A stretch of DNA of 47,313 nucleotides from an uncultured Gammaproteobacteria bacterium (GCA_964446775.1 CAYURA010000002.1:1-47313), one strand, 5' to 3'. Positions 412 through 43,776 are shown, counted from the first letter of the stretch. The notes: generated from the sequence alone by a model not told the origin. Translations and numbers: made by a program.

Positions 412-1902
412 ATGCAAATAATAATTGATACTAGTAGATTAGATAGATTTTTTAATCTCCCGCCTGACCAAATGTTGTGGGAATTTTTCATTAATATTGG
501 CTGGATTTTTATCGCCGTCCTTTTCCTTTATGCAGTTTTAATTATGTATCTCCAGAGTATTCGTGCTTATTGGGCAGCTAATAATTTAAAATTTATCCTA
601 TTAGCCCTTGACATACCCAAGGGTAATGAACAATCACCGAAAGCAGTAGAGAACATGTTTACCTATTTAGCTGGAGCTCATAGTACCCCTAATTTTTTTG
701 AAAAATGGTTTGATGGTAAATTTCAGGTTTCTTTTAGTTATGAAATCGTTAGTTTAGAAGGTTATACGCAATTTTTAATTAGAACCCCAATTGAGTTCCG
801 AGACTTAATTGAAACTTCAATATACTCTCAATATCCTGATGCAGAAATTGCTGAGGTAGATGATTATATAGATACTGTACCGCATAGATTTCCTGATGAG
901 GATTATGATGTTTGGGGGACTGAATTTGTTCAAGCAAACCACTGGGCTTTTCCGATTAAACTATACCCTGAGTTTGAGTATAAATCTGGTCCCCTGGAGA
1001 CACAATTTAAAGATCCAATGGCCTCATTGATGGATCTCTGTAGCTCTTTAAGAGAGGGTGAAAATTTATGGTTTCAGATGGTTGTCATTCCTATTGGTTT
1101 TAAATGGACTGAAGAAAGTGATGCTCAAGTAGAAAAAATAATTGGTAGAAAAAAAACCAATAAAGGCCTAGATACGAAAATAATTGAGTGGATCGGTGAT
1201 GCTAGTGAATTTATTTATAGTATTTGGGGAGATATTGAGAATAAGGAAAAAGAAGATCGGCCAAAGCTAGTTATGGAGCTAGATCCAAAACAGCAAGCAC
1301 AAATTGAAGCAATTGAACTTAAATCTTCAAAAGTTTCTTTCGCTATGAAAACAAGGATGGTTTATGTTGCGAGAAAGGATCTAATGTCACGTTCTAAAGT
1401 GGTTAATGGAGTAATTGGCTATACCAAGCAGTTTGCATCCCTCCACTTAAATAATTTAATGCCAGATATAAAGTATACCATGACTAAAACATCCTATTTC
1501 AATAAGAAAAAAAGATTGATTAGGAAGAAAAATGCTATTATGAATAATTACATCACCCGTGATGATTTTAATGGGCGTACTCCAGGCATATATAATATTG
1601 AGGAGCTAGCAACTTTATGGCACTTTCCTATTGAGGCAAATGTTAAATCACCAATGATTCAGAAAGCCCCAGGTAGGAAAGCAGACGCACCTTCTTCTTT
1701 GCCAGTTTTAAGTGATATTGCTGGTAGTTCAAGTCAGTTTTTTGAAGATGATATTTTAGCAGCTGATATTAATAAACAAGTTGCTAGCAAGAAAGATGAG
1801 AATAAAGAAGTAAAAGAAACTAATCATACATTAGAATTTGATAAGTCAGATTATAAATCAAATGGAAAAGACCAAGTTCCAGATAATTTACCATTTATAT
1901 AA
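412..1902 (+). CDS. membrane-anchored protein, ATPase-less paralog of the N-terminal module of the 35254..37785 TraD/VirD4-like ATPase
   Basis: 496-aa ORF with one N-terminal TM helix (WIFIAVLFLYAVLIMYL). Residues ~60-430 are collinear with residues ~55-400 of the 843-aa ORF (VSFSYEIV..YPDAEIAEVDDY vs FSFEIV..YPEAVIEEIEDY; EELATLWHFP vs EELTSIFHLP). No P-loop is present. Its stop overlaps the next ATG (TAATG). Confidence 0.6.
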   Translation: MQIIIDTSRLDRFFNLPPDQMLWEFFINIGWIFIAVLFLYAVLIMYLQSIRAYWAANNLKFILLALDIPKGNEQSPKAVENMFTYLAGAHSTPNFFEKWFDGKFQVSFSYEIVSLEGYTQFLIRTPIEFRDLIETSIYSQYPDAEIAEVDDYIDTVPHRFPDEDYDVWGTEFVQANHWAFPIKLYPEFEYKSGPLETQFKDPMASLMDLCSSLREGENLWFQMVVIPIGFKWTEESDAQVEKIIGRKKTNKGLDTKIIEWIGDASEFIYSIWGDIENKEKEDRPKLVMELDPKQQAQIEAIELKSSKVSFAMKTRMVYVARKDLMSRSKVVNGVIGYTKQFASLHLNNLMPDIKYTMTKTSYFNKKKRLIRKKNAIMNNYITRDDFNGRTPGIYNIEELATLWHFPIEANVKSPMIQKAPGRKADAPSSLPVLSDIAGSSSQFFEDDILAADINKQVASKKDENKEVKETNHTLEFDKSDYKSNGKDQVPDNLPFI

Positions 1903-3107
1903 TGAAAACTCCAGTTCAAAATTTAACAAAAAAAACTTTGCGTATTGGCATTGATGCTCGTTTTTATGGCCCCTTAGGTAAGGGATTGGGTCGTTATGTG
2001 CAGGAGTTAGTTGATAATCTGATTAAGATAAATGATGAAAGGGCTGGCGAATTTGAATATGTCATATTCTTAAGTAAAGCTAATTTTGATGAATTTCAAT
2101 CTTCTTCCTTATTTATCAAAAAAAAACTGGTTAATTTAAAATGGTATTCTTGGGAAGAACAATTTTTTTTCCCGAAGATTATTAAACAAGAAATGATAGA
2201 TTTGATGCATTTTCCTCATTTTAATGTGCCGATTTTTAGTCAGATTCCATTTGTAGTAACTATTCATGATTTAATTCTAACCCGTTTTCCTAGCCGACGC
2301 GCTTCTATATTACCTGCTGCTTTATATTGGTTTAAACAGCTTGCATATCGTCTAATTATTAAAACAGCCTTACTAAGAGCAAAGAAGATTATTACTGTTT
2401 CAAATTTTACAAAAGAAGACATTGTTAAACAATTTAAGATTAAACCAAAAAAAATATTAGTAACGTATGAGGGCGTTTCTAAGTTAGAGAAAATAACAAC
2501 GTCTAATAAAAAAGTTAATAATTCAATTGTACTTTGGCAGAAATATAAAGTTAAAAAACCTTTTATATTGTATGTTGGCAATGCATATCCCCATAAAAAC
2601 TTAGAATCATTACTTTTCGTTACTCGGAAATTAATTAATGAACATCCAGATTTAAAAATTGTTATGGTTGGCAAGGAAGATTATTTCTATCGAAGACTTA
2701 AAGATAGGTCAAGAGAAATTAAAGCTAGCTTAACTGACAATAATAATTTACATATTTTTCCTGGATTCGTTCCTGATGAGGATTTAGCAATTTTTTATCA
2801 GAATGCTCTCTTCTATATTTTTCCTTCTTTGTATGAAGGGTTCGGTTTGCCGCCTTTAGAAGCAATGTCTTTTTCTTGCCCAGTTCTTTCGTCTGATCAA
2901 GCTAGTTTGCCAGAGATTATTGGTGAGGCAGCTTTATTCTTTAATCCTTATGATGAATCAGACTTAGAAAGTAAAATAAAATTAATGATTAATGATGATA
3001 AATTAAGATATGATTTATCCGTTCTTGGTCAGGAGAGGGTTAAACTTTTTAATTGGTTAGATTGTGCTGAGAATACCAGGGAAGTATATCAAAATATTTT
3101 ATTATAG
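1902..3107 (+). CDS. glycosyltransferase, GT-B fold family 4 (GT4/GT1-type)
   Basis: 401 aa. The C-terminal EGFGLPPLEAM motif, the preceding PSLYEGFG and the N-terminal RIGIDARF are typical of retaining GT4 enzymes. Translationally coupled to the upstream ORF. Confidence 0.85.
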   Translation: MKTPVQNLTKKTLRIGIDARFYGPLGKGLGRYVQELVDNLIKINDERAGEFEYVIFLSKANFDEFQSSSLFIKKKLVNLKWYSWEEQFFFPKIIKQEMIDLMHFPHFNVPIFSQIPFVVTIHDLILTRFPSRRASILPAALYWFKQLAYRLIIKTALLRAKKIITVSNFTKEDIVKQFKIKPKKILVTYEGVSKLEKITTSNKKVNNSIVLWQKYKVKKPFILYVGNAYPHKNLESLLFVTRKLINEHPDLKIVMVGKEDYFYRRLKDRSREIKASLTDNNNLHIFPGFVPDEDLAIFYQNALFYIFPSLYEGFGLPPLEAMSFSCPVLSSDQASLPEIIGEAALFFNPYDESDLESKIKLMINDDKLRYDLSVLGQERVKLFNWLDCAENTREVYQNILL

Positions 3108-5639: not shown

Positions 5640-7703
5640 ATGGCTATTTTAAATAAAATGAATTTAGAAAAAAATAAAGAGAATAATCTTGAAACTAAAA
5701 AAGCAAAGAAGAAGCAGCTTAATAAATCATCATTAGAATCAACTTTCTTAGAACGACCACTACCTAAAGTTGAAGATGTTTCTCGTTTTGAGAGTTTAAT
5801 CGAAAAAGAATTACAAATAGGGGAGACTGATGCTAATCTTTCTGCTATTTATAGTGATAATAAAGGGAAATTGGTTGATGTTAGTAAAGTTAAAAAGAAG
5901 AAAAGAGTGCCGATAATAATCTTTTTTAAACGAATTTTTGTTTTGACTATAATACTTTCAGCTGCTTATAGTCTTTATTATTATTATTTTCAGCAACCTG
6001 AAAACACTGGGAGCCTAAATTTTTATATTAATGCTCCTGAAAGAGTTACTCTTGGCGAGGAGTTCAATTATGAAATTATTTATGAAAATAATGGCCAAAT
6101 AGTTCTTGATCAAGTTATGTTGGAAGTAGTGACGCCCGATAGCTCAGTATTAATAGAGTCTGTCCCAGAATTAGAGAATTATAAAAAATTATCCATTGGC
6201 ACTCTTATGCCCGGAGAAAAGGGTTCATTAAAAATTAAGGCTTATTTAATAGCTCCAGCTGATTCAGCTAATATTTTTAGCGCTAGATTAACTTATATCC
6301 CGTCTAATTTCTCTAGTGAATTCCGCAAAGAGGCTAGTGTTAATACAGTTATATCCAACTTGGGTTTAATAATAAATATTGATTATCTTAATACGGCCTT
6401 AGTCGGTCGTCTGAATGATTTAAAATTTAATATATCATCTTTTAATAGTAATAATGATAATTTAAATGAAATATATTTAGATATAAATGGCTCAAATAAC
6501 TTTCAATTGAAAAAGAATGTTAATAATGACTTAGAGTCTCATAGCGTAAAGACTAAAGCCCCGTTGAATAAAAATGATAATTTACAGAGTGCAGTTAAAG
6601 TAGAGGAAATCAGTGATTTTCGTTATCTATTAAGTGAAATTCCAAGAAAATCAGATGATCGATTTAGCTTACCGATTAATTTTAGTTTCAAAGAAAAGTC
6701 TGAAGCTAAAGAAGATCTTACCTTTCGATTATTAAAAAAGACGGCTGATAGCAAAGAGCTTATTTTTTGGGACAAAACTTTATCTTTTGATTTAGTAAAT
6801 AGTGACTTGAATCTTGAGTTATCACTAAATGAAAAAAAAGGTGATCAAGCAGTTAATTTTGGCGATAATCTTAATTATTCTTTGTCTTATGTAAATAATG
6901 GAGAGACAGCTTTATTTGATTTGGTTTTAATGGTAGTTATTAATGGGGATCTGGTGGACTGGTCTTCTTTAGTTGATCCATTAGGATCTTCAGTGGCTGG
7001 CAATACGATGATCTGGACTAAAGAAGATATTCCCGCCTTATCAGAACTAGCTCCTGGTAAATTAGGCAAAATAGATTTTAGTTTGCGTGTAAAAGATTTC
7101 TCTCTAAATAATATTTCTACTGATAATCAAATTATTAGTTATGCTCAATATGGTTTGAGTGCAGCAGTAGAAGCTGAAGCCGAAGATAGCCGTAGTAACA
7201 CAATTATTAGTCCACTAAATAGCGATTTATCTTTAACTGAGAAGATTCTCTATTTCAATGAAGATAATCTTCCAGTTGGTTCTGGTCCTTTACCACCAAA
7301 AGTTGGTGAAAAGACTAGCATGAGAGTAATGTGGACTATTAAAAATAATTTACATGATTTAGAGAATGCAGAAGTTGTTATGAATTTAGCTCAAGGTCTT
7401 AGTTGGGATGAGAAAGCTAATACTAATGTAGGTCGGATATTATATAACGAGGAAAATAGATCGATTACATGGCGTCTGGGATACTTACCTTTGTCAGTTT
7501 ATCGAGCTGATGCAGAGTTTAATATTAGCCTCACTCCTAATGAGGATGATCGTGACAAGATTCTTATATTATCTTCAGGGACGACAGTGAAGGCAATTGA
7601 TGCAAAAACTAAGGCGGAAATTAATCATAAAACTAAAGCTAAGACCACTAAGTTAGAAGATGATGAAATAGCGGGTCTATCTAGTAATGGGAGGGTTGAA
7701 TAG
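5640..7703 (+). CDS. membrane-anchored surface protein with Ig-like (DUF11/CARDB-like) repeats and a C-terminal GPLPPKVG domain
   Basis: 687 aa with a basic N-terminus and one TM (IIIFFKRIFVLTIILSAAYSLYYYYF). It has repeated beta-rich segments of the type v-x-G-e-x-f-x-Y-x-i-x-Y-x-N-x-G. The C-terminal domain is paralogous to 42688..43776. Confidence 0.6.
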   Translation: MAILNKMNLEKNKENNLETKKAKKKQLNKSSLESTFLERPLPKVEDVSRFESLIEKELQIGETDANLSAIYSDNKGKLVDVSKVKKKKRVPIIIFFKRIFVLTIILSAAYSLYYYYFQQPENTGSLNFYINAPERVTLGEEFNYEIIYENNGQIVLDQVMLEVVTPDSSVLIESVPELENYKKLSIGTLMPGEKGSLKIKAYLIAPADSANIFSARLTYIPSNFSSEFRKEASVNTVISNLGLIINIDYLNTALVGRLNDLKFNISSFNSNNDNLNEIYLDINGSNNFQLKKNVNNDLESHSVKTKAPLNKNDNLQSAVKVEEISDFRYLLSEIPRKSDDRFSLPINFSFKEKSEAKEDLTFRLLKKTADSKELIFWDKTLSFDLVNSDLNLELSLNEKKGDQAVNFGDNLNYSLSYVNNGETALFDLVLMVVINGDLVDWSSLVDPLGSSVAGNTMIWTKEDIPALSELAPGKLGKIDFSLRVKDFSLNNISTDNQIISYAQYGLSAAVEAEAEDSRSNTIISPLNSDLSLTEKILYFNEDNLPVGSGPLPPKVGEKTSMRVMWTIKNNLHDLENAEVVMNLAQGLSWDEKANTNVGRILYNEENRSITWRLGYLPLSVYRADAEFNISLTPNEDDRDKILILSSGTTVKAIDAKTKAEINHKTKAKTTKLEDDEIAGLSSNGRVE

Positions 7704-34764: not shown

Positions 34765-35247
34765 ATGGCCAATAATTTAAACAAGATTGAGGAAATTCCA
34801 TCACCTCACGTAGCAGAAATACCTCGAGAAGGCTCAGAAACAAATGTAGAAAGAGTCGGAGAAATACTGCCAGAGATAAAAAAAAATAATGATAAAGGCG
34901 TTCGACCACCTACTGCAAAGAAGCCTGTCCCATCGCCACTGAAGGTAGAAGACCAAAATAACTATGAGGGTAAGAAGATCAAAGCTATTGAAAATATCAT
35001 GTCGAGTGGCTTAGATAAAATTTTCTTAGAAATGAGTCCTAGAGAGCGTAAGCGTTTTAAAGACGAAGGAGAAAAAACAGCTCTAAAAATTAGCGAATTA
35101 TTATCAAAAGTTCGACTTAGTGCTGATAAAATTGTTAAATTAATTAAAGACTGGCTAAAATTAATCCCTGGTGTGAATCGTTTCTTTCTTGAGCAAGAAG
35201 CAAAAATTAAGACAGATAAAATAATAAATATCAAGAAAAGCCTTTAA
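34765..35247 (+). CDS. hypothetical protein, no family recognised
   Basis: 160 aa with a Pro/Lys-rich N-terminal half and a helical C-terminal half. Tightly packed between the ferredoxin and the ATPase. Confidence 0.5.
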   Translation: MANNLNKIEEIPSPHVAEIPREGSETNVERVGEILPEIKKNNDKGVRPPTAKKPVPSPLKVEDQNNYEGKKIKAIENIMSSGLDKIFLEMSPRERKRFKDEGEKTALKISELLSKVRLSADKIVKLIKDWLKLIPGVNRFFLEQEAKIKTDKIINIKKSL

Positions 35248-35253
35248 AATCAT

Positions 35254-37785
35254 ATGTTCGAATTTTCATCTAGCGCTTTCCAAGGTCCATCAGATCAATT
35301 AATTAGCTCATTAATTATAGTGCTAATAATTTTAGGTATTTTAATAGTACTAACCTTAATTATTCGTTTGCTTGTGAGGCAAGCAATGGTCAACAATAGT
35401 TATTTTGATCATCAAGTATTTTTAATTAAATTGCCTAAGGAAAAGCCAGAGGATGAAAAAAATAATAGTGATTCATTACAACAAATAAGAGAAGAAATTG
35501 CAAAAGGAGAAACCATTTTTGCTAGTATTGGGGGTTTAAAGGCACAAAGAGGTATTTCTGCTTGGTTTTTAGGGAGAAATGACCATTTTTCTTTTGAAAT
35601 TGTAGCTTATAATAATAAAATTGCTTTTTATGTAGTATCACCACGTGCTATGTCACGCTATTTAGACCAACAGATAACGGCCTATTATCCAGAAGCTGTG
35701 ATTGAAGAAATCGAAGATTATAATATTTTCAATGCCTATAGCAATATTATGAGTGCTTCATTAAAAACAAAAAAAAATTATATTTTACCCTTGCGCACCT
35801 ACCAAAAGATTGAAGTAGATCCTCTTAACTCTTTAATTAATGTCATGTCTAAATTAGATAAAGATGAAAGTATGGCAGTCCAATATATTGTTCGTAGCGC
35901 TAAAGGTTCTTGGCATGGTGAAGTGAGAAAAGCTGTCCGTAGAATTCAAGCAAAAAATTCAGTTAGTGCCGGAATTCATGTTAATAAATTTTCTGAAATA
36001 ATGTCTCATTTAACTGAGATATTTTCTGTTGCAAGTAGTAAACCAAAGGACCCTAATAGTCAGGATGCCCAGAAAAGATTATCAGCCGTGGAAGAAGAAA
36101 CTTTAAAGTCGATTGAAGAGAAAAATTTAAGAGCTGGACTTGATGTTAATATTCGCATAATTGTTGCTACCGCCAGTAAAGAGCGCTCAGTGACTTATTT
36201 AGAGAATGTGGCCAGTACTTTTACTGAATACAATAATTATAGTTATGGCAATAACTTTTCTCGAGCGATAAAGTCTAATCAAGAAAAATTAATTAAAGAT
36301 TTTATATATCGTCGTTTTCGTGAAGAAATGTCGTTTTTATTAAATACTGAAGAGCTCACTAGTATTTTCCATCTGCCACTAAGACATATGGAAACTCCTA
36401 ATATTTTATGGTTAACAGCTAAGAGTGCCCCAGCTCCAGCAGATCTCCCAAGTGAGGGCTTGCTACTTGGAAATAATTTCTATCGCGGAGTTAACAAAGA
36501 GATAAGGATAAAGGGCCAAGATAGAAGGAGGCATACCTATATTGTTGGTAAATCTGGTGTTGGTAAATCCGTGCTATTAACCAATATGGCGGTCCAAGAT
36601 ATTCAAAATGGTGAAGGTGTTTGTGTTCTTGATCCACATGGTGATTTAATAGAAGATATTCTACAGAGAATACCTCCAGAGAGAGCTGAAGATGTGGTAA
36701 TTTTTTCACCTGCAGACACTGAAAGGCCATTAGCTTTAAATCTACTAGAGTATGATCCTCGTTATCCTGAACAAAAAAGTTTTGTGATTAATGAAATGAT
36801 CGGAATTTTTGATAAATTATATGATTTAAAGCAGACTGGTGGCCCGATGTTTGAACAATACATGCGTAATGCTCTATTACTAATTATGGAAGACCCTGAG
36901 AGTGGATCTACTTTAATGGAAATTCCCAAAGTCCTTTCAGATGAAAATTTTAGAAGTTTGAAACTATCTCGTTGTAAGAATAGAACTGTTGTCGATTTTT
37001 GGAGGAAAGAGGCTGAAAAAGCAGGCGGTGATGCTGCATTAGCTAATATAGTCCCTTATATTACCTCTAAGTTAACTTCTTTTATTTCCAACGATATGAT
37101 GCGCCCGATTATTGGCCAGCAGAACAGTTCTTTTAATTTTAGAGATTTAATGGATCGCCAAAAAATATTATTAATTGATTTACCAAAAGGCGTTGTGGGT
37201 GAGATGAATGCCTATCTTTTAGGCATGATTGTTGTGGGTAAGATTTTAATGGCTGCCTTATCGAGAACAGATATACCAGGAGAAGATCGAAAAGATTTTT
37301 ATCTTTATATTGATGAATTTCAAAACTTTACCACCGATTCAATTTCACAAATTCTATCTGAGGCAAGAAAATATGCGCTTAATCTAATCATTGCGCATCA
37401 ATATGTTGGTCAATTGACTAAAAATAATAATACGGAAATAAAGGATGCGGTGTTTGGTAATGTGGGCACAATGATAAGTTTTAAAATAGGTACCGAAGAT
37501 GCTGAATTTTTAGTCAAAGAGTTTTCTCCAGTTTTTAACGCTTTTGATTTAATAAATATTGATAAAGGGACTGCTTATATCAAATTATTAGTTGATAATA
37601 GTGCAACTCGTCCTTTCTCTATGAGAACTGTTTGGCCTTTGATTGGCGTGGCTCGTCCTGAATTATCTAAAAAAATTAGGACTTTAAGCCGCTTAAAATT
37701 TGGTCAAGATCGATCAATAATTGAAGCAAATATTATTAGAAGGACTGAGAATATAGTCTTGCCTAAATCAACTTTAAAAGAATAA
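35254..37785 (+). CDS. membrane-anchored TraD/VirD4-like (type IV coupling protein family) P-loop ATPase with a novel N-terminal module
   Basis: TM helix at aa ~17-40. Walker A GKSGVGKS (aa 432-439, nt 36547-36570) is followed by VLDPHGDL. Walker B is YLYIDEFQNF (D687/E688). ARKYALNLIIAHQYVGQL resembles the TraG/TraD C-terminal motif. Confidence 0.75.
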   Translation: MFEFSSSAFQGPSDQLISSLIIVLIILGILIVLTLIIRLLVRQAMVNNSYFDHQVFLIKLPKEKPEDEKNNSDSLQQIREEIAKGETIFASIGGLKAQRGISAWFLGRNDHFSFEIVAYNNKIAFYVVSPRAMSRYLDQQITAYYPEAVIEEIEDYNIFNAYSNIMSASLKTKKNYILPLRTYQKIEVDPLNSLINVMSKLDKDESMAVQYIVRSAKGSWHGEVRKAVRRIQAKNSVSAGIHVNKFSEIMSHLTEIFSVASSKPKDPNSQDAQKRLSAVEEETLKSIEEKNLRAGLDVNIRIIVATASKERSVTYLENVASTFTEYNNYSYGNNFSRAIKSNQEKLIKDFIYRRFREEMSFLLNTEELTSIFHLPLRHMETPNILWLTAKSAPAPADLPSEGLLLGNNFYRGVNKEIRIKGQDRRRHTYIVGKSGVGKSVLLTNMAVQDIQNGEGVCVLDPHGDLIEDILQRIPPERAEDVVIFSPADTERPLALNLLEYDPRYPEQKSFVINEMIGIFDKLYDLKQTGGPMFEQYMRNALLLIMEDPESGSTLMEIPKVLSDENFRSLKLSRCKNRTVVDFWRKEAEKAGGDAALANIVPYITSKLTSFISNDMMRPIIGQQNSSFNFRDLMDRQKILLIDLPKGVVGEMNAYLLGMIVVGKILMAALSRTDIPGEDRKDFYLYIDEFQNFTTDSISQILSEARKYALNLIIAHQYVGQLTKNNNTEIKDAVFGNVGTMISFKIGTEDAEFLVKEFSPVFNAFDLINIDKGTAYIKLLVDNSATRPFSMRTVWPLIGVARPELSKKIRTLSRLKFGQDRSIIEANIIRRTENIVLPKSTLKE

Positions 37786-40669: not shown

Positions 40670-42673
40670 ATGAGATTTTTTTTAGTTTCTGTCTTTACAT
40701 TTTTTTGTTTATATCTGCCATCTGCAGTTTTTGCCCAGTTAGATTACCCACTTCTAGCTAATTATTTTCTAAAATGGGACATCACTGAGGAAGAGGCAGT
40801 GTCTTTATCTCGTTGGGATTTATTAATTTTAGATATGGAAATTCAGGAAAATCAACCTGAATTAATTAAAAAAATCAGGCAACTCAATCCCGAAATAAAA
40901 ATTTTAGCATATATTACTTCACAGGAAATCATCGATGATGTGACCAGTTATTCAAATAATAAATTAAGACAAAAACTATCTAGACAAATTATTGAAGACT
41001 GGCGCTTAAAAGATCAAACTGGTGCTGCAGTTATTAATTGGCCAAACACATCCATGTTTAATCTGAGTAATGAGGCTGGGAGAAATGAGCATAACCAACT
41101 CTTTAATGAGTTCTTGCCAGAATTTATTAAAGATAATATTTATCATTCTGGACTCTGGGATGGAATATTTTATGATAATACTTGGGGAGACATCTTTTGG
41201 GTTAATAATGGAGACATTGATTTAAATAGAGATGGGAAAAAAGATAAGCCTGAATATGCAGATTTTTTATGGCAAGAAGGATTTAATAAAGTCTTGAATT
41301 CAACCAGAATTTTATGCGGTCCAGACTTTCTTGTAATGGGTAATGGCCGTATCTACTGGCCATATCAATCCTTGCTAAACGGCATGATGTTGGAAGGATT
41401 TCCTTCTAGCTGGGAAAATGGTGGTACTTGGCAAGGATCAATGGAGTCATATCTGAAGTTAGCAGACATTAATCAAAAACCATTTATTCCAGTTATTAAT
41501 GTTTATGAAAATAATCAAGAAAATTATAAGCGTTTCCGTTTTGGTTTAGCTAGCACCCTATTAGGCGATGGTTATTATAGTTTCGATTATGATGTGACTA
41601 GCCACGGCCAGTTATGGTGGTATGATGAATATGATTATCGGTTAGGCACAGCGCAATCAAAAGCGTATAATATTTTAAACAATTCTAGCCAGGAAATTGA
41701 GCCAGGTATTTGGAGACGTGATTTCGAATATGCTTCAGTAATTCTTAATTCAACTAATGAGGCGAAAAGGCTTGTTTTTGATAAAGAAGAATTTGAAAAG
41801 ATTACAGGGAAACAAGACACATTGGTAAATAGTGGTCTAAAAATAAACCACCTTAACTTAGCATCAAATGATGGCATTGTATTATTAAAAAAAATAGATT
41901 TTTTACAGGGAACTAGCTTCACGAATGGGTCCTTTATAAGGATATATGATGATTCGGGGCGACAATCACGAAATGGTTTTTTTTCATATCTTCCTTTTTT
42001 GCCAGCTGGTAGCGATGTCATTGCTGGTCATTTTTTGAATGATAGAGATCTAGATTATATCTACTTAGATAAAGGAGTCTTAAATTTACAGAGAAATGAT
42101 AAAAAAATTTGGAGTATTAGGCCATTTGCCCCTGGTTTCAAAGGCTCTGCGTCGATAGTCGTGGCTGATATTAATGGCGACTCTATTCCAGAAATAATAA
42201 TCGGCGCGGGTCCTGGCGGCGGCCCCCAAGTATTAGTGTTTGACTTTGATGGTAGAGTCTTAATAAATTTCTTCGCTTATGACAATAATTTTCGTGGCGG
42301 GGTTAATGTAGCTGCTGCTGATATTAATGGCAATGGAAAAGCAGAAATTATTACTGGTGCAGGTCCTGGTGGTGGTCCCCACGTTCGTATTTTCGATGAA
42401 ACCGGAAAATTTCTTAGTCATTTTTTTGCTTATGATGAAAAATTACGTGATGGAGTAAAACTTGCTGCAGGCGATTTAGATGGAGATGCAAAAGCTGAAA
42501 TATTTACAGTGGATGCCTCTGGATCAGGGTCGCTTATAAAGATATTTGATTTAAACGGCCAGGAAAAAAATAATTTTCAGGCATTTGATAAAGATTTTAA
42601 AAATATTATTTCTATTTCCTATGCTAATAACCTGAATCAGTCTGAAATAGCTATAGGTATTTCTGAGTTTTAG
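40670..42673 (+). CDS. secreted protein: N-terminal glycoside-hydrolase-like TIM-barrel region plus C-terminal FG-GAP/VCBS repeats
   Basis: Signal peptide MRFFLVSVFTFFCLYLPSAVFA. Three repeats of the type DINGDxxxEIIxGAGPGGGPxVxxFD (nt ~42170-42530). The N-terminal WDLLILDME..ILAYITSQE pattern recalls GHL-type hypothetical glycosidases, a weaker call. Confidence 0.65.
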   Translation: MRFFLVSVFTFFCLYLPSAVFAQLDYPLLANYFLKWDITEEEAVSLSRWDLLILDMEIQENQPELIKKIRQLNPEIKILAYITSQEIIDDVTSYSNNKLRQKLSRQIIEDWRLKDQTGAAVINWPNTSMFNLSNEAGRNEHNQLFNEFLPEFIKDNIYHSGLWDGIFYDNTWGDIFWVNNGDIDLNRDGKKDKPEYADFLWQEGFNKVLNSTRILCGPDFLVMGNGRIYWPYQSLLNGMMLEGFPSSWENGGTWQGSMESYLKLADINQKPFIPVINVYENNQENYKRFRFGLASTLLGDGYYSFDYDVTSHGQLWWYDEYDYRLGTAQSKAYNILNNSSQEIEPGIWRRDFEYASVILNSTNEAKRLVFDKEEFEKITGKQDTLVNSGLKINHLNLASNDGIVLLKKIDFLQGTSFTNGSFIRIYDDSGRQSRNGFFSYLPFLPAGSDVIAGHFLNDRDLDYIYLDKGVLNLQRNDKKIWSIRPFAPGFKGSASIVVADINGDSIPEIIIGAGPGGGPQVLVFDFDGRVLINFFAYDNNFRGGVNVAAADINGNGKAEIITGAGPGGGPHVRIFDETGKFLSHFFAYDEKLRDGVKLAAGDLDGDAKAEIFTVDASGSGSLIKIFDLNGQEKNNFQAFDKDFKNIISISYANNLNQSEIAIGISEF

Positions 42674-42687
42674 TTTTAATTAATTAA

Positions 42688-43776
42688 ATGATTATGAATA
42701 ATAAACTTTTTAAATTTTGGAAGCGTAGGCGTGATCGATTCTATCGTCGGCATAAATGGCAAATAGTCCTGGATTTTTCTTTGATTATCATAATTATTAT
42801 TTTAATAGCAATTTTTATTAGGCTAGTATCATTCAAACCTATTTTAAACAATTTCGTGAAATGGCCGACTTTAAGCTCGACCACACTAGCAATTGATGAT
42901 CAAATATTATCCTTTGATATTATTGTTAGTTTGGATGAAAAGACGATAGCTGTTAATGAAAATATTTCTTGGAAGATTCAATTTAAAAATAACGGTGAAA
43001 AAAATATTAATCAAGCTTATTTAGACTTTATTTTTCCAGATCATACATTTTTAATTGATGAGCTTAGTTCTGATAATAAAGATTTATTAATAAAAAATAA
43101 TCAAATAATAATTAACAATGTTCAGGCTGGCAAGACAATAGATTTCAATGTAGAATTAAAATGGCATAAGAATCAGATTCATGCATCACGATCAATAAAA
43201 AGTAATTTAAAAGCTAGTGTAATTAGTGACGACGGTCATAAACTAGAAAAAATGCTAGTCCTAGAGGAAGTCAAGATTATTGCAGATTTAAAGTTAAAAG
43301 CTGAGCTTTTCTATCATAGTCTTCAAGGCGATCAGCTAGGGATTGGCCCGATTCCACCAGAGGTGGGTATAGCTACTAAATATTGGTTGATTATAAAAGT
43401 TGATAATTTAGATAATCAAATTAACAATTTTATTTTCTCAACTCAATTAGCTGAAAATGTTGAGTTAAGTGATGATTATAGCCTGTTAGCAGGTAAATTT
43501 TCTTATGATAAGGATCGTCGTCTATTAATTTGGAAAATTGATCAGCTTGGATTTGAGGAAAATGATTATGTAGCTAATTTTGCGTTATATTTAACACCGA
43601 CAAAAAATCAGTTAGGAAAAAATGTTGAAATATTAAAGAATATAAATTATTATGCTGATGACCCGTGGTCAGGTACCACTATCAGTGCTCATTTAAATAA
43701 CTTAGATAGCTCATTGCCTGCTGATAAGATTAATAAAGGGCAGGGAATAGTGATCAGCAATGAAAATGCTTACTAA
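42688..43776 (+). CDS. membrane-anchored surface protein, paralog of the 5640..7703 C-terminal region
   Basis: Basic N-terminus and one TM (IVLDFSLIIIIIILIAIFIRLV), followed by an Ig-like segment. GIGPIPPEVGIATKYW matches GSGPLPPKVGEKTSMRV, and LIWKIDQLG matches ITWRLGYLP. Confidence 0.55.
   Translation: MIMNNKLFKFWKRRRDRFYRRHKWQIVLDFSLIIIIIILIAIFIRLVSFKPILNNFVKWPTLSSTTLAIDDQILSFDIIVSLDEKTIAVNENISWKIQFKNNGEKNINQAYLDFIFPDHTFLIDELSSDNKDLLIKNNQIIINNVQAGKTIDFNVELKWHKNQIHASRSIKSNLKASVISDDGHKLEKMLVLEEVKIIADLKLKAELFYHSLQGDQLGIGPIPPEVGIATKYWLIIKVDNLDNQINNFIFSTQLAENVELSDDYSLLAGKFSYDKDRRLLIWKIDQLGFEENDYVANFALYLTPTKNQLGKNVEILKNINYYADDPWSGTTISAHLNNLDSSLPADKINKGQGIVISNENAY

Follow-up and report, generated by a model that had tools for sequence, protein, structure and literature searches.

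The window (the whole stretch of 47,313 nt analyzed here) contains an open reading frame, at positions 412 to 1,902, whose product resembles the N-terminal part of an 843-aa ATPase encoded in the same window, lacks an ATPase of its own, and is encoded immediately before a glycosyltransferase gene. The locus raises the question of the partner with which such a free module works. An earlier note had suggested an autonomous membrane-proximal domain (adaptor, gate or receptor), which could act in trans with the 843-aa ATPase or with the envelope genes located downstream. The product is instead, with a probability of about 0.8, the membrane-anchor half of a split type-B ATPase of the VirB4/VirD4 superfamily. 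Homology, fission origin, identity and retention of the partner ATPase, and a breakpoint specific to the genus were all established by sequence comparison. The explanation (gene fission, then rearrangement) is a fairly ordinary one. The features on which the analysis relies are listed in Table 1.

Table 1. Location of the free DUF8128 gene, of its parts, and of the related or compared loci of the same genome
Feature	Position	Strand	Basis or description
Free DUF8128 protein, 496 aa	window, 412..1902	+	BLASTP, HHalign, MAFFT alignment, type-B placement in tree, precomputed Pfam PF26449
Single N-terminal TM helix, about aa 20-52	window, 469..567	+	sole hydrophobic stretch of the 496-aa protein
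DUF8128 globular module, about aa 61-431	window, 592..1704	+	region aligned to the 843-aa protein; pLDDT mostly 80-90
Variable, acidic and polar disordered linker, about aa 432-488	window, 1705..1875	+	low pLDDT; columns unconserved
C-terminal motif VPDNLPFI (P-x-N-L-P-F)	window, 1876..1899	+	conservation in the free-family alignment
TAATG stop/start overlap with the GT4 glycosyltransferase gene (1902-3107)	window, 1900..1904	+	read directly in the sequence
Type-A fused paralogue, 843 aa: TM helix, DUF8128 module (to about aa 400), VirD4/TrwB-like P-loop ATPase	window, 35254..37785	+	family scans; separate clade from free, solo and type-B proteins in both trees
Solo type-B ATPase, 633 aa	contig 30, 1564-3465		Walker A and B intact, no TM segment
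T4SS locus of the same genome	contig 16, 3389-9953	-	514-aa unknown, PrgI/VirB3 (143 aa), 225-aa unknown, VirB4-like ATPase (639 aa), 204-aa NTF2-like, RadA

The 496-aa protein and its fused paralogue

The collinear likeness of the 496-aa protein to the N-module of the 843-aa protein, first noticed by eye in four motif pairs, holds true upon closer inspection. A single collinear alignment was obtained by BLASTP (aa 80-431 vs. aa 86-399, 21% identity, E 2e-15, computed with composition-adjusted statistics), and HHalign of 41 free-family sequences against 41 fused N-modules gave a probability of 99.5% (E 7e-23) over 308 columns. Both pairwise comparisons, which the earlier note had suggested, are significant, and the likeness is therefore not compositional, as it is found with adjusted statistics and again at the profile level. 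The four motif pairs are aligned both by BLASTP and in the MAFFT alignment of the two families, in which 36 columns are invariant throughout, the EEL..H.P block among them. On these alignments the 496-aa protein is confirmed as a true paralogue of the N-module of the ATPase. A profile derived from the free family alone missed the fused paralogue of the same genome, hence a two-family profile was built.

The 843-aa protein features a Walker A motif (GKSGVGKS) at 432 and a Walker B motif (YLYIDEF) at 683. Its ATPase half scores on the TrwB_AAD_bind, T4SS-DNA_transf and TraG-D_C models, TrwB being its sole sequence-level match in the PDB. The gene is preceded, at a distance of 6 nt, by an open reading frame of 160 aa belonging to no Pfam family (window 34765-35247), and is followed by dnaX and serS.

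Neither a P-loop nor any ATPase family was matched by the 496-aa protein in Pfam and NCBIfam scans, which assigned it to no family at all, the model set being one without PF26449. No match to PDB sequences was found, either with the protein or with the two-family profile. Precomputed Pfam annotation places PF26449 (DUF8128) on an identical protein and on 117 of the other 119 listed homologues, as well as on the N-half of the 843-aa protein and of all its listed homologues. The module is thus already catalogued, as a domain of unknown function; the entry covers neither the split/fused paralogy nor the partner. A full-text literature search for 'DUF8128' and 'PF26449' retrieved no paper.

In the AF2 model of the 496-aa protein a long helix (aa 18-58) runs over the TM segment; the module which follows closes with the sequences EELATLWHFP and APSSLP. 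As the protein has a single TM helix, and the ATPase of the fused paralogues must be cytoplasmic, the module would reside on the cytoplasmic side of the membrane, in an N-out/C-in orientation. This argues against the extracytoplasmic receptor or gate envisaged at first.

The acidic, low-complexity tail had been described as standing in place of an ATPase. This is correct as to the missing P-loop, but the description overlooked a conserved C-terminal motif, P-x-[DNE]-[LIM]-P-F, found in 119 of the best 120 homologues out of more than 2,500 matches. In the free-family alignment P490, L493 and P494 are invariant, N492 is at least 90% conserved, and the columns of the linker are unconserved. The predicted pLDDT is below 50 for residues 420-488, and the linker is missing from the free forms of distant lineages, 421-454 aa in length. 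A PPxNLP sequence marks the module-ATPase junction of all fused proteins, type A as type B, and the C-terminus of the distant free forms. The VPDNLPFI tail is a second copy of this junction motif. Distant free forms stop at the motif; the class to which the 496-aa protein belongs has gained both the variable linker and the second copy.

Spread of DUF8128 proteins and gene fission

The survey of CPR genomes for domain architectures proposed in the earlier note was carried out with the two-family profile on 301 Patescibacteria genomes (248 genera), sampled evenly over the phylum. Matches were found in 300 of them, most genomes having two and some up to six; both free and fused forms were detected, with open frames of about 420-540 aa and about 806-1107 aa, respectively. 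The genome under study (813 kb, 99% complete) encodes DUF8128 exactly twice, once as a free protein and once in a fusion, so that the coexistence of both states in one genome, as stated in the earlier note, is correct. The free family exceeds 2,500 matches, the best 120 of which are 55-78% identical to the 496-aa protein and mostly 470-510 aa long.

The gene 156 product of Bacillus phage G (JN638751.1, 3905-6382, 825 aa), annotated as 'MsbA-like', is a fused DUF8128-ATPase, matched by the fused N-module of the window in tblastn searches (E 3e-11), and the module is therefore not strictly confined to Patescibacteria. In the phage genome gp156 comes directly after gp155, annotated as VirB-like. 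The free protein gave no match to phages by tblastn.

In Patescibacteria, DUF8128-ATPases make up two ancient paralogues, each formed by a TM helix, a DUF8128 module and a coupling-protein-like P-loop ATPase. Type A occurs only in the fused state; type B is a fusion in part of the lineages and a pair of adjoining genes in others. Trees were obtained by quick searches, with SH-aLRT support only and a midpoint root. Type A forms one clade in both the N-module and the ATPase trees (SH-aLRT 100), solo and fused type-B ATPases the other clade in the ATPase tree (SH-aLRT 100). In the N-module tree all free forms fall into a single group (SH-aLRT 92), whose sister is a fused type-B protein (99), a result which implies one fission event. 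The midpoint root leaves three fused type-B N-modules on the side of type A, a weakly supported position (73-88). The free module of the window pairs with that of the L030 genome (SH-aLRT 89), as the solo ATPase of contig 30 pairs with the solo ATPase of L030 (93), and the two halves were therefore inherited together.

The site of the split can be read from the ends of the two products. Free forms finish with ...PPxDLPxx, solo ATPases open with M..I.LFG.TNFRN..FGIK.DDRRRH.Y.IGKTG.GK, and the two ends rebuild the sequence found at the junction of fused forms (..EPPANLP.EG......FG.TNFR...), so that the split point is the fused junction. Rather than an autonomous domain, as suggested in the earlier note, the 496-aa protein is the N-terminal product of a gene fission.

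Type-A and type-B fused genes lie close to each other, on the same strand and with type A upstream, in four distant Patescibacteria (L037, L038, L039 and L048). Such closeness may point to a tandem duplication in an ancestor and, possibly, to a joint function.

The probable partner ATPase and the gene neighborhood

The solo ATPase of contig 30 scores on the same three models (TrwB_AAD_bind, T4SS-DNA_transf, TraG-D_C) as the ATPase half of the 843-aa protein. In 14 of 16 distant genomes the free DUF8128 gene is immediately followed by a gene for a stand-alone ATPase, at distances ranging from -56 to 148 nt. The encoded ATPases vary in size from 493 to 755 aa and share 50-70% identity with the contig-30 ATPase and about 44% with residues 400-830 of the 843-aa protein; the contig-30 ATPase is placed by the ATPase tree as their orthologue. 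In ten other sampled loci an ATPase of the contig-30 type is fused to the DUF8128 module, in proteins of 844-1107 aa. The supposition that the free copy works in trans with an ATPase stands, with a change of partner: the likeliest one is the 633-aa ATPase of contig 30, not the 843-aa protein, because the orthologue of the former adjoins, or is fused to, the module in most other Patescibacteria.

The C-terminus of the contig-30 ATPase is a treble-clef zinc finger (PF23477). Its gene is preceded by NrdR and by a 100-aa open reading frame of no family; an RNase T/DEDD exonuclease gene follows after 3 nt.

The free module might still pair in trans with the 843-aa type-A ATPase, giving mixed type-A/type-B assemblies instead of, or besides, those formed with the contig-30 ATPase. 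The two paralogues are found together in almost every genome, their genes are tandem neighbors in several lineages, and in one family (f2) the type-A gene is only 7-11 kb away from the free gene; moreover, once unlinked, the free protein could have switched partner, type A included, the free and the type-A genes being 35-38 kb apart on one contig in the genus. Such assemblies are nevertheless improbable, as type A is already provided with a covalent DUF8128 module of its own, and it is the type-B ATPase, not type A, that goes along with the free module in the trees, in fusions and in gene adjacency.

Retention of the type-B pair and its separation were monitored in close relatives. Of 21 genus and order relatives, all 21 retain a free module as well as a solo ATPase and a type-A protein. 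Adjacency of the two halves is seen in six of eight genomes of the same order; in the 13 genomes of the genus the halves are without exception unlinked. The wider conserved context includes SecA, SecD, SecF, Sigma70_r4/HARE-HTH, DUF8128, ATPase, MnmA and AlaRS genes. In families of the same order the block reads Sigma70_r4/HARE-HTH, DUF8128, ATPase, x, GT2-like, and the breakpoint of the genus falls exactly between the DUF8128 and the ATPase genes. Past the break, DUF8128 is still found with the HARE-HTH gene, and has GT4 and DUF4012 downstream; the ATPase is still found with the GT2-like gene, and has NrdR and the small open reading frame upstream. The break thus placed GT4 and DUF4012 downstream of the module, and the envelope link is therefore genus-specific.

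The contig-30 ATPase as partner has to be weighed also against the view that the module is an autonomous adaptor, gate or receptor domain working with the downstream envelope genes (GT4, DUF4012, DUF11 surface protein). The TAATG overlap which joins the gene to GT4, reported in the earlier note, is present. Close relatives feature the order Sigma70_r4/HARE-HTH, DUF8128, GT4, DUF4012, DUF11-like surface protein, TGT, PK, enolase, so that the DUF8128-GT4-DUF4012-surface protein succession is kept, and one metatranscriptome contig spans the DUF8128/GT4 junction. Yet the housekeeping genes TGT, PK and enolase are equally syntenic, and the GT4/DUF4012 order is therefore ordinary synteny. The overlap itself is replaced in close relatives by gaps of 10-34 nt. 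Neither GT4 nor DUF4012 resides beside the DUF8128 gene in any of 16 more distant genomes, families of the same order have the ATPase at that place, and the module would be on the cytoplasmic side. A functional link to the envelope genes is on this evidence very unlikely: it is limited to one genus and to a rearrangement breakpoint, and the glycosyltransferase gene is best regarded as a neighbor acquired recently and by chance.

The gene is probably transcribed. In two metatranscriptome runs a few 151-nt contigs, 100% identical, map inside the open reading frame, and one more spans the stop/start overlap; transcription and read-through are weakly supported by these data, and DNA carry-over is possible. 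The Sigma70_r4/HARE-HTH gene, located ahead of DUF8128 in all relatives, is found at the extreme end of contig 47 (74-1120, minus strand), which probably joins the start of the contig of the window, the assembly break falling in the intergenic region between them. Single-pass surface proteins with DUF11-type (CLIPPER-like) Ig-fold repeats are encoded in the window at 5640-7703 and 42688-43776, and a 667-aa protein with a GHL15 glycosyl-hydrolase-like domain and FG-GAP repeats at 40670-42673.

Relation to type IV secretion ATPases and putative role

According to literature data, 2,918 of 3,035 Patescibacteria genomes host 5,713 VirD4-type homologues, mostly far from virB4, and exaptation of these proteins 'cannot be ruled out' (PMC12102498). 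Like the coupling proteins TrwB of R388, VirD4 and TraD/TraG, DUF8128-ATPases are anchored by an N-terminal TM segment. Unlike them, they carry a module of about 350 aa between the TM segment and the ATPase, are encoded far from virB4 with no relaxase gene in the loci examined, and are chromosomal, near-universal core genes of Patescibacteria. The 496-aa protein further differs in having no P-loop, Walker motifs being found only in its paralogue and in its partner. Nor is its context that of a coupling protein, as the neighbors of the gene are housekeeping or envelope genes, and the T4SS is encoded on contig 16.

A resemblance to VirB4 emerged from structure models. The free protein was modelled by AF2 (pLDDT 69.8, pTM 0.64) with a mixed alpha/beta core and a disordered tail starting at residue 420. 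The top seven Foldseek matches in the PDB are TrwK/VirB4 chains (E 1e-4 to 3e-3, probability 0.91-1.0, TM-score 0.25-0.34). With the model of the fused protein (pLDDT 72.1) the top 13 are VirB4 chains, with E values from 7e-10 up, most over at least 900 columns; TrwB, HerA and Cag-beta rank below, covering the ATPase half only. TM-scores of the VirB4 matches are only 0.22-0.34 and the global RMSD is large, the likeness being at the fold level only. The fold of the module is, judging from these models, likely to be similar to that of the VirB4 N-domain. VirB4 (TrwK of R388) has the same order as the fused form, an N-domain followed by a RecA-like ATPase. Likeness at the sequence level is missing, both in HHalign against the VirB4 of this genome and in an HMM search of PDB sequences, and the ATPase half is in sequence nearer to VirD4 than to VirB4. 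The VirB4 N-terminal models (CagE_TrbE_VirB / TIGR00929) did not match the 496-aa protein in Pfam and NCBIfam scans, and a true VirB4 is encoded separately, on contig 16.

A precedent for a stand-alone, ATPase-less protein encoded beside its ATPase is TrsD of pGO1-type Gram-positive conjugation systems, a relative of the VirB4 N-terminus (PMC12102498). TrsD, compared here by description only, goes with VirB4 inside T4SS loci, the DUF8128 protein with a VirD4-like ATPase outside of them. That the 496-aa protein is a TrsD-like accessory serving the VirB4 machine of contig 16 is barely tenable: although VirB4 tops the fold search and TrsD-type, VirB4-N-terminus-like proteins are the commonest T4SS component in Patescibacteria (PMC12102498), the T4SS locus has its own small 225-aa gene in the TrsD position, between PrgI and VirB4, the DUF8128 gene is beside virB4 in none of the loci examined, and HHalign of the module profile against both the VirB4 and the 225-aa protein of this genome returned nothing. 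A role as a replacement of FtsK was also considered, and rejected, since the genome has a normal FtsK.

For the membrane-anchor half of a split type-B ATPase, the following sequence of events may be proposed. In the lineage including this organism, type B was split once, right after PPxNLP, yielding a DUF8128 protein along with a soluble ATPase. Later on, a rearrangement in the genus parted the two genes; the ATPase half is now on contig 30, and the DUF8128 half kept the upstream Sigma70_r4/HARE-HTH gene and gained GT4 and DUF4012 downstream. The single TM helix would hold the cytoplasmic module at the membrane, and the module may dock the ring formed by the soluble ATPase. The flexible tail ending in PDNLPF may replace the lost covalent link, acting as a tether. 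Nucleic acid as the cargo is a guess, and a doubtful one, prompted by the DNA-binding upstream neighbor and by the zinc-finger tail of the ATPase.

More tentatively, DUF8128-ATPases might represent a third, phylum-wide branch of the VirB4/VirD4 superfamily, combining a VirB4-like N-domain and a VirD4-like motor in a chromosomal housekeeping machine independent of T4SS, with type A fused and type B fused, split or split and scattered; in this genus the duplicated PxNLPF tail of the free anchor would have evolved as a tether retaining a non-covalent motor. Were this so, the machine could be, for example, a membrane-tethered nucleic-acid translocase cooperating with the Sigma70_r4/HARE-HTH protein.

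Nearly every Patescibacteria genome has about two 'orphan' coupling-protein homologues located far from T4SS genes. One of these would be a two-subunit enzyme, with anchor and motor genes that can even reside in different chromosomal regions; pipelines will therefore label the anchor as 'hypothetical', and the motor as a coupling protein with no TM segment. Recognition of the pair keeps the module from being wrongly tied in function to the envelope glycosylation genes, supplies an anatomy for a nearly universal and uncharacterised machine found in ultra-small bacteria and, along with the short C-terminal motif, provides defined targets for interaction and structural tests.

DNA near-identical to positions 412-3107 of the window (96-100% of sampled words) was detected in at least ten studies, in metagenomes of bioreactors, manure, landfills, wastewater and groundwater. 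Bioreactors, landfills and wastewater are examples of the engineered and waste-associated habitats in which the organism is widespread.
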